DNA of 9,870 nucleotides from a virus (taxonomy: Duplodnaviria > Heunggongvirae > Uroviricota > Caudoviricetes): IMG/VR virus record IMGVR_UViG_2713896780_000030. One strand, given 5' to 3'. The notes beneath the pieces were generated by a model. It worked only from the letters and a program-made list of their open reading frames with translations, did not search any database and was not told the DNA's origin. Shown piece after piece: positions 4,091-4,259 of the stretch (position 1 is its first letter; the number at the start of each line of letters is the position of its first letter). The position numbers and the translations under genes are program-made.

Positions 4091-4142
4091 TTTAAAATCC
4101 CTCGGCGTTCGCGCTGTGCGGGTTCAAGTCCCGCTCCGGGTA
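4091..4142 (+). other. 3' fragment of a tRNA-Leu(UAA)-type gene (anticodon loop to acceptor 3' strand); putative att core
   Basis: TTTAAAATCCCTCGGCGTTCGCGCTGTGCGGGTTCAAGTCCCGCTCCGGGTA contains the anticodon loop with TAA, a long variable arm, the T-arm GCGGG-TTCAAGT-CCCGC and the acceptor 3' strand TCCGGGT plus discriminator A. It matches my recollection of E. coli leuZ. No complementary acceptor 5' strand exists upstream, so this is a fragment. The CCA position falls into the N run. Confidence 0.7.
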
Positions 4143-4192
4143 NNNNNNNNNNNNNNNNNNNNNNNNNNNNNNNNNNNNNNNNNNNNNNNNNN
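4143..4192. other. Run of 50 N (assembly gap or masked sequence)
   Basis: Directly visible in the sequence. ORFs spanning it are artefacts. Confidence 0.98.
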
Positions 4193-4235
4193 TGGGAAAG
4201 ATAAGAATAAAATCAAAGCAATAAGCAGTGTCGTG

Positions 4236-4259
4236 AAACCACCTCCGGGTGGTTTTTTT
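4236..4259 (+). terminator. Rho-independent terminator candidate (plus-strand orientation)
   Basis: Hairpin AACCACC-tccg-GGTGGTT followed by a 6-7 T run at 4254-4259. About 95 nt downstream of the tRNA-derived core, consistent with a native tRNA terminator. Confidence 0.55.

Follow-up and report, generated by a model that had tools for sequence, protein, structure and literature searches.

Gene content of the window and structure of its att site

The window, by which we mean the whole stretch of 9,870 nucleotides analysed here (IMG/VR virus record IMGVR_UViG_2713896780_000030), holds the right end of a P2-like prophage and the left end of a pipolin, joined at a partial copy of the tRNA gene leuZ (Table 1). 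On the prophage side, a same-strand run of genes leads toward the att copy and comprises the repressor, a 216-aa protein, a DUF2511 protein, and the integrase; a gene for a Cox-like excisionase/repressor lies on the opposite strand. The integrase corresponds to RefSeq WP_001300279.1 ("phage integrase"), an accession that is also present in enterotoxigenic Escherichia coli (ETEC) H10407, and the integrase, arm, and core together are 98.2% identical at the DNA level to Escherichia phage 520873 (Peduoviridae, Xuanwuvirus). The body of the prophage, which covers 37 kb in a relative, encodes P2-family capsid, GPO scaffold, terminase, tail, and late control D proteins, as well as an Ogr-like protein, a replication endonuclease, and a ParM module. 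This combination of a lysogeny module with P2-family structural genes identifies the left element as a P2-like prophage (Peduoviridae). With an intact integrase and a Cox-like excisionase, the prophage can probably excise.

Table 1. Features of the window, with strand and supporting evidence
Feature	Position	Strand	Evidence
Cox-like excisionase/repressor of P2-like prophage	1028..1231	-	PHROG 575, E = 1.2e-27
HTH repressor	1530..1934	+	Pfam HTH_31/HTH_19; PHROG transcriptional regulator/repressor families
Intact P2-type tyrosine integrase, 333 aa	2983..3984	+	Pfam Int_N 5e-32, Phage_integrase 2.5e-22; PHROG 1 1.4e-76
Prophage right (P') arm, 106 nt, short direct repeats	3985..4090	+	Repeat search
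3' part of leuZ tRNA-Leu(UAA), nt 33-84: anticodon loop, 3' anticodon-stem strand, variable arm, T arm, 3' acceptor strand	4091..4142	+	52/52 identity to intact gene
50-N run (assembly gap or mask), stands for tRNA terminal CCA	4143..4192	.	Relatives' sequence
Complete 67-nt 3'ETS-leuZ small RNA copy (K-12 b4759) with intrinsic terminator	4193..4259	+	66/67 identity
Direct-repeat end	4260..4266	+	Junction table, alignment
First gene of pipolin left end, 246 aa, hypothetical	4435..5175	-	RefSeq WP_022581686.1; phrog_29550
Remnant of att-proximal P4/SXT-type integrase, first 159/399 aa	5256..5732	+	Pfam Arm-DNA-bind_3 7.7e-15
piPolB (primer-independent PolB), 851 aa	5644..8199	-	KH-X8-KTRG motif, H10407 comparison
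Second pipolin tyrosine recombinase (XerC/IntP2-like)	9085..9870	-	Pfam Phage_integrase 1.3e-22

Two further observations concern the gene content of the prophage. The two small genes between repressor and integrase (1950-2977) are candidate lysogeny-expressed morons; the product of one, the 216-aa protein, is named membrane protein by RefSeq in H10407 and resembles the flagellar regulator Flk at a level below threshold (NCBIfam, 8.6e-16, 58 bits versus a cut-off of 353), and the other encodes the DUF2511 protein. Beyond the window, positions 10134-11409 of the 41.7-kb relative locus (L001) encode ParM segregation and partitioning/stability proteins, which are unusual for an integrating P2-type phage.

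The P' arm carries the direct repeats TAAAAAGTGGCGA/TAAAAAGTGACAA, AAATGGCG.../AAATGGTG..., and TGACAATAGA (twice), and the P2-like integrase and repeat-rich arm of the original prediction were both recovered. The motif AAGTGRCRAT occurs only three times in the 65-kb array formed by the two elements: two occurrences are in the P' arm, and the third is in the arm at the other end of the prophage, directly behind the upstream copy of the att repeat. Judging from their sequence, the arm repeats are probably arm-type integrase binding sites.

The arm borders directly on the core, TTTAAAATCCCTCGGCGTTCGCGCTGTGCGGGTTCAAGTCCCGCTCCGGGTA, which is identical at 52 of 52 positions to nt 33-84 of the 87-nt leuZ tRNA-Leu(UAA) gene of a relative with 100% identity to the window, and which extends from base 1 of the anticodon loop to the base preceding CCA. 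Nucleotides 1-32 of leuZ are absent here; the left flank is phage arm, with no tRNA 5' half, and the copy lacks the complete cloverleaf, acceptor stem, and D arm of a functional tRNA-Leu. The initial recognition of a tRNA-Leu(UAA) 3' part with a missing 5' half was therefore correct. A 49-nt pattern taken from the core occurred twice in the 41.7-kb relative locus, against a chance expectation of 0.00. Over the window, ARAGORN and Rfam (E-value mode) returned no tRNA gene and no Rfam match, as expected for half a tRNA; the adjacent 3'ETS copy was likewise unmatched by Rfam. An element boundary thus coincides with sequence identical to the 3' portion of the targeted tRNA gene, extended by CCA in the relatives. 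Tyrosine integrase genes adjoin it, with the end of the P2-type integrase 106 nt upstream of the core and the pipolin integrase remnant about 1 kb downstream.

Relatives reveal what the run of Ns behind the core stands for. RM11626-C1 (E. coli O145), read directly, has GGGTA-CCA-TGGGAAAG across this position, and in the nine best-matching complete genomes (H1-H9) the matched span is 1754 nt for a 1801-nt query, a difference of 47 nt that likewise indicates CCA. The run is probably an assembly break or scaffold gap within a 124-nt sequence that is present three times at the locus, or the result of masking. Because the relatives have just CCA in place of the N run, the terminator hairpin begins 42 nt past the tRNA end and not about 95 nt, as had first been estimated, although the hairpin itself proved real. 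It has a 9-bp stem (4235-4243/4248-4256; GAAACCACC-UCCG-GGUGGUUUU, then Us), with a UCCG loop and a T-run to 4259, and folds at -13.5 kcal/mol (z = -2.6). A consensus/simple terminator scan, run twice, did not flag a hairpin at 4235-4256; it was found by folding. The hairpin closes a complete copy of 3'ETS-leuZ, which K-12 annotates as a 67-nt ncRNA directly after leuZ; both the b4759 sequence and its terminator hairpin are present. The sole change relative to K-12 is a T-to-C substitution at 4245 in the hairpin loop, by which UUCG becomes UCCG. The following GT is common to all three copies of the repeat, and the window shares GTGCCTG (4260-4266) with the yecA-side copy and the empty site.

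The pipolin starts at about 4267 according to the junction table. The 246-aa product of its first gene had no Pfam or NCBIfam match, phrog_29550 (function unknown) being its sole match. In the att-proximal integrase, a deletion of about 5.8 kb ends the protein after 159 aa, all of which are identical to the intact H10407 integrase (159/159; RefSeq pseudogene "missing C-terminus"); the junction lies at ~5729-5732, and at its other end the deletion reaches into the 3' end of piPolB. For the polymerase open reading frame (ORF), no match was obtained with Pfam, NCBIfam, or PDB sequences, and PHROGs gave only weak DNA polymerase matches; its identification as piPolB follows from the published KH-X8-KTRG motif and from the comparison with H10407. 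The motif KHEVSQLIAMKTRG is found at residues 613-626 and Kx3NSxYG at residue 504; in the reference piPolB (PMC5695915), KH-X8-KTRG, in place of KxY, has the same residue numbers as in the window ORF. The ungapped identity with the H10407 protein is 816/852, and RefSeq names it "DNA-directed DNA polymerase." The C-terminus is altered after residue 824 by the deletion; the last 27 residues (5644-5729) are encoded by the antisense strand of integrase sequence and do not match the C-terminus of the H10407 protein.

The window ends inside the second pipolin recombinase. In the closest complete genomes, the N-terminus of this protein is cut by an IS3 element just past the window end, and its length is 270 aa, abutting IS3, in FWSEC0002 versus 376 aa in H10407. 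At positions 21037-23028 of another locus (L007), IS3 is followed by a type I restriction-modification M subunit pseudogene. The right element thus carries a PolB with KH-X8-KTRG and has att direct repeats overlapping a Leu-tRNA, the hallmarks of a pipolin; what had been predicted as a pipolin-like module is borne out by the diagnostic motif of its polymerase. It has no functional recombinase, which fits a published truncated subgroup and still allows membership among pipolins. With most of both recombinases lost, this pipolin is probably fixed in place.

Direct repeats and occupancy states between pgsA-glyW-cysT-leuZ and yecA

The complete genome of RM11626-C1 contains three direct copies of the repeat at the locus pgsA-glyW-cysT-leuZ ... 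yecA. Copy 1 is the intact leuZ behind pgsA-glyW-cysT; copy 2, the window copy, follows the P2-like prophage 37,199 bp beyond copy 1; and copy 3 follows the pipolin 18,248 bp beyond copy 2 and adjoins yecA. The intact tRNA-Leu(UAA) and the further core copy anticipated by the original prediction were therefore both found in the relative genome, the former 37.2 kb to the left, behind glyW-cysT, and the latter beside yecA, 18.2 kb to the right. Alignment of the copies, as had been suggested, delimits the elements: 124 nt are common to all three (tRNA nt 33-87, the whole 67-nt 3'ETS-leuZ, and GT), and copies 2 and 3, the pipolin's pair, share about 130 nt with one mismatch, their identity reaching five bases beyond GT. 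The repeat is accordingly 124-130 nt long, and the idea of a shared core of 52 nt had to be abandoned. Since the terminator lies inside the direct repeat of both elements, it is not a unique bacterial-side flank. The earlier reading of the site as attR of the left prophage stands, with the addition that it is also the pipolin attL, while the segment then taken as flanking bacterial sequence belongs to the repeat, as part of the 3'ETS-leuZ copy. In complete genomes 100% identical to the window, each element has a direct repeat at its other end, and an intact tRNA is found at one end.

Four states of the site were compared. K-12 has an empty site according to the junction table; RM9872 (O145) has the identical pipolin directly after intact leuZ and 3'ETS, without a prophage; the record of phage 520873 runs from prophage arm through the repeat into yecA and hence represents the phage alone; and the window copy has phage arm on its left and pipolin on its right. 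The related strains called for by the original prediction thus comprise both a prophage-free and a fully empty site. Junctions are base-exact across the four states, bar two one-base gaps, apparently sequencing errors, in the 520873 record, and occupied and empty sites differ exactly at the repeat boundaries. The 520873 record was also considered as a source of a free phage attP, and rejected in this role, because it is an excised prophage with yecA attached; we used it as the phage-only occupied site, and the free attP of that phage is a reconstruction rather than a direct reading.

The tandem was found at 100% identity in nine complete O145 genomes (H1-H9), and at least nine other O145 genomes carry the same pipolin, at an identity of at least 99.9%, directly after intact leuZ and without a prophage. 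Among 5,426 complete E. coli genomes, the phage is alone at the site in 491, the left end of the island adjoins an intact leuZ in 501, and the tandem (phage integrase, att, island left end) is present in 29, so that either element alone is about 17 times commoner than the tandem. The piPolB gene is covered to at least 80% in 284 of these genomes. As the pipolin left end is found in 501 genomes and piPolB in only 284, the left-end module may be common to non-pipolin islands at leuZ. A 127-nt query taken from the repeat matched 7,101 places in 5,425 genomes, with a maximum of four per genome. The roughly 1,676 extra copies that follow from these figures agree with the 21% occupancy published for the tRNA-Leu pgsA/yecA hotspot (PMC11551731).

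Proposed integration history and its alternatives

Tyrosine integrases that act at tRNA genes use an attP that carries the 3' part of the tRNA from the anticodon loop onward. In the standard design, the element brings a replacement for the 3' part, so that the gene is rebuilt upstream and a partial copy is found downstream; sublocation preferences of tRNA-gene integration were reportedly described by Williams in 2002. The window resembles this class in its block of identity starting in the anticodon loop, the rebuilt tRNA, the partial repeat at the far end, and the integrase beside the att site. It differs from the class in the extent of the block, which at 124-130 nt continues about 70 nt past the tRNA, through a named regulatory RNA and a terminator.

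Very probably, then, positions 4091-4266 represent a hybrid att site, the attR of a P2-family prophage and the attL of a pipolin in one, created by two integrations at leuZ; this proposal is built on sequence comparisons. Under this model, the attP of each element would begin with leuZ sequence at the anticodon loop and extend through the 3' external transcribed spacer and the terminator of the operon. When a tyrosine integrase recombines such an attP with the chromosomal site, leuZ, its 3'ETS, and the terminator would be rebuilt intact upstream, and a promoterless partial copy would be left downstream. Two such integrations would place the 37-kb prophage between the intact leuZ and the partial copy in the window, and the 18-kb pipolin between that copy and a second partial copy bordering on yecA. 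The successive integrations at one tRNA-Leu gene that had been predicted are supported by the three copies, the exact junctions, and the existence of single-element strains.

The postulated attP has counterparts in phages. mEp390 (annotated attP), Fostie, and Pectobacterium phage ZF40 each carry a tRNA 3' part, spacer, and terminator beside an integrase/excisionase; these units start at the same anticodon-loop base as the core and end right after the T-run. Compared with four independent attP/att units, the start of the core agrees to within one base. mEp390 and Fostie are lambdoid phages whose attP units (L008 1499-1619 and L009 1501-1625) contain a diverged 3'ETS-leuZ segment, about 87-88% identical over the unit and with a GAAA loop versus UUCG.

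The substitution at 4245 offers a hint as to where recombination took place. Beside the pipolin left flank, this position always has a C, whether or not the prophage is present; a T is found in copies 1 and 3, at the phage-only site, and at the empty site. The pattern suggests that the C came from the pipolin attP and that both crossovers lay 5' of it, that is, 5' of spacer position 53, unless it is due to later mutation; a single SNP could also reflect a later mutation or a gene-conversion tract instead of marking a crossover. We considered the T/C variant as a clock for the integration order as well and discarded this use, because both orders predict the same pattern and the variant places the crossovers only. 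In pipolin-only strains, e.g., RM9872, this stretch is brought in by the integrating pipolin, and the C therefore belongs to the terminator and 3'ETS of the functional leuZ operon.

For O145, our model has the pipolin integrating first and the phage then entering the intact leuZ copy on the pipolin's left. This order is the likelier one, since the integrative element at leuZ has been inferred to be an ancestral feature of O145:H28, whose prophages are variable (PMC7067040). The sequence itself does not fix the order, because integration of the phage first and of the pipolin then into the phage attR would give the same product.

Two other origins of the site have to be weighed. The prophage and the pipolin might have been gained as one block, for instance when transduction or conjugation was followed by homologous recombination in the flanking chromosome, which would account for the occurrence of the same tandem with the same phage integrase accession in the distant O145 and ETEC H10407 strains and would be in line with a truncated-pipolin clade that is monophyletic and shows frequent prophage co-integration (PMC11551731). 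We consider this improbable as the source of the arrangement: O145 pipolins that have the prophage beside them and those that lack it are 100% identical, the prophage-free junction is base-exact, and single-element genomes greatly outnumber those with the tandem. Moreover, even a block that moved later must first have arisen by two integrations. Alternatively, the core might be a tRNA pseudogene in decay, or what a rearrangement left behind, with site-specific recombination playing no part. The failure of ARAGORN and Rfam to detect a tRNA in the window would fit such an origin, but the sequence shows zero decay (52/52), and its first base coincides with that of the independent att units to within one base. 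In addition, it belongs to a set of three direct copies, the limits of which coincide with the ends of the elements and with precise states of presence and absence. The junction comparisons rule this candidate out, leaving it a negligible probability. Two integrations at leuZ are thus our preferred account of the site.

Known systems at leuZ and the duplicated 3'ETS-leuZ

A prophage and a pipolin side by side at leuZ is an already known arrangement. Flament-Simon et al. (2020; PMC7385651) located all E. coli pipolins in the same Leu-tRNA gene and reported three att repeats in some genomes, a layout first noted for ETEC H10407 and explained by a myovirus prophage that shares the site. The strains named in that study, H10407, 99-3165, and FWSEC0002, match the window at 98-99.8% identity and are among its best matches. 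The integration site, the three-repeat layout, and the P2-type prophage on the tRNA side are all as described; nothing substantive differs, the tRNA-overlapping repeat being called attR there, with left and right naming reversed. Mateo-Caceres et al. (2024; PMC11551731) described a pipolin subgroup with IntSXT-piPolB deletions and truncated recombinases, often with co-integrated prophages carrying IntP2-type integrases. The window shares with this subgroup an integrase truncated to its first 159 aa and joined to the 3' end of piPolB, an IS-disrupted IntP2-type recombinase, and a co-integrated prophage with its own P2-type integrase, and we saw no difference from it.

The presence of a complete 3'ETS-leuZ in every att copy is the only point that we did not find in the literature searched. 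PMC11551731 does not mention leuZ, ETS, sponge, sRNA, RyhB, or terminator, and a literature search on leuZ, prophages, and integration brought up no connection between the att repeat and 3'ETS-leuZ. Where PMC13501541 cites Lalaouna et al. (2015), 3'ETS-leuZ is presented as a sponge RNA of the glyW-cysT-leuZ transcript. The window copy resembles the K-12 RNA in sequence, including the sRNA-pairing region and the terminator, and differs from it in having no complete tRNA or operon promoter before it.

It is conceivable, though unlikely, that the window copy is made as the 3' end of the prophage repressor-to-integrase transcript, is processed, and adds to the RyhB/RybB sponge, with elements at leuZ being selected to carry it. 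Several observations are consistent with such a role. The one difference from K-12 is confined to the hairpin loop, and the duplexes predicted with RyhB (-32.5 kcal/mol, with none of 200 shuffles as good) and with RybB (-26.7 kcal/mol) are identical to those of K-12, although these energies are rough, as duplexfold ignores intramolecular structure. The repressor-to-integrase run is on the same strand and reads into the copy with no intervening terminator detected, and independent phage attPs keep the spacer and the hairpin through the T-run. Natural release of the RNA, however, needs processing of a full tRNA precursor, which the window copy, without a tRNA 5' half, does not provide, and the restored operon terminator together with recent copying from the host would explain the conservation equally well. 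No promoter-like site was detected near the window 3'ETS copy. That the elements at leuZ each duplicate a complete sponge whose downstream copy is expressed, with lysogeny and tandems shifting RyhB/RybB buffering, is an extrapolation from sequence that we regard as quite unlikely.

Taken together, the window is a textbook case of unrelated elements using one tRNA gene as an integration hotspot, and the published co-integration at leuZ is confirmed. The triple repeat of 124-130 nt explains breaks and gaps at this site in short-read assemblies, and for annotation it follows that the att repeat next to the pipolin in such strains is not the repeat that overlaps the intact tRNA. In about one quarter of complete E. 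coli genomes, this known regulatory RNA is present at the site in additional copies, and we found no paper testing their expression. Depending on where the crossover falls, integration of mEp390, Fostie, or another phage whose attP spacer has diverged would also replace the host sponge RNA with a phage version.
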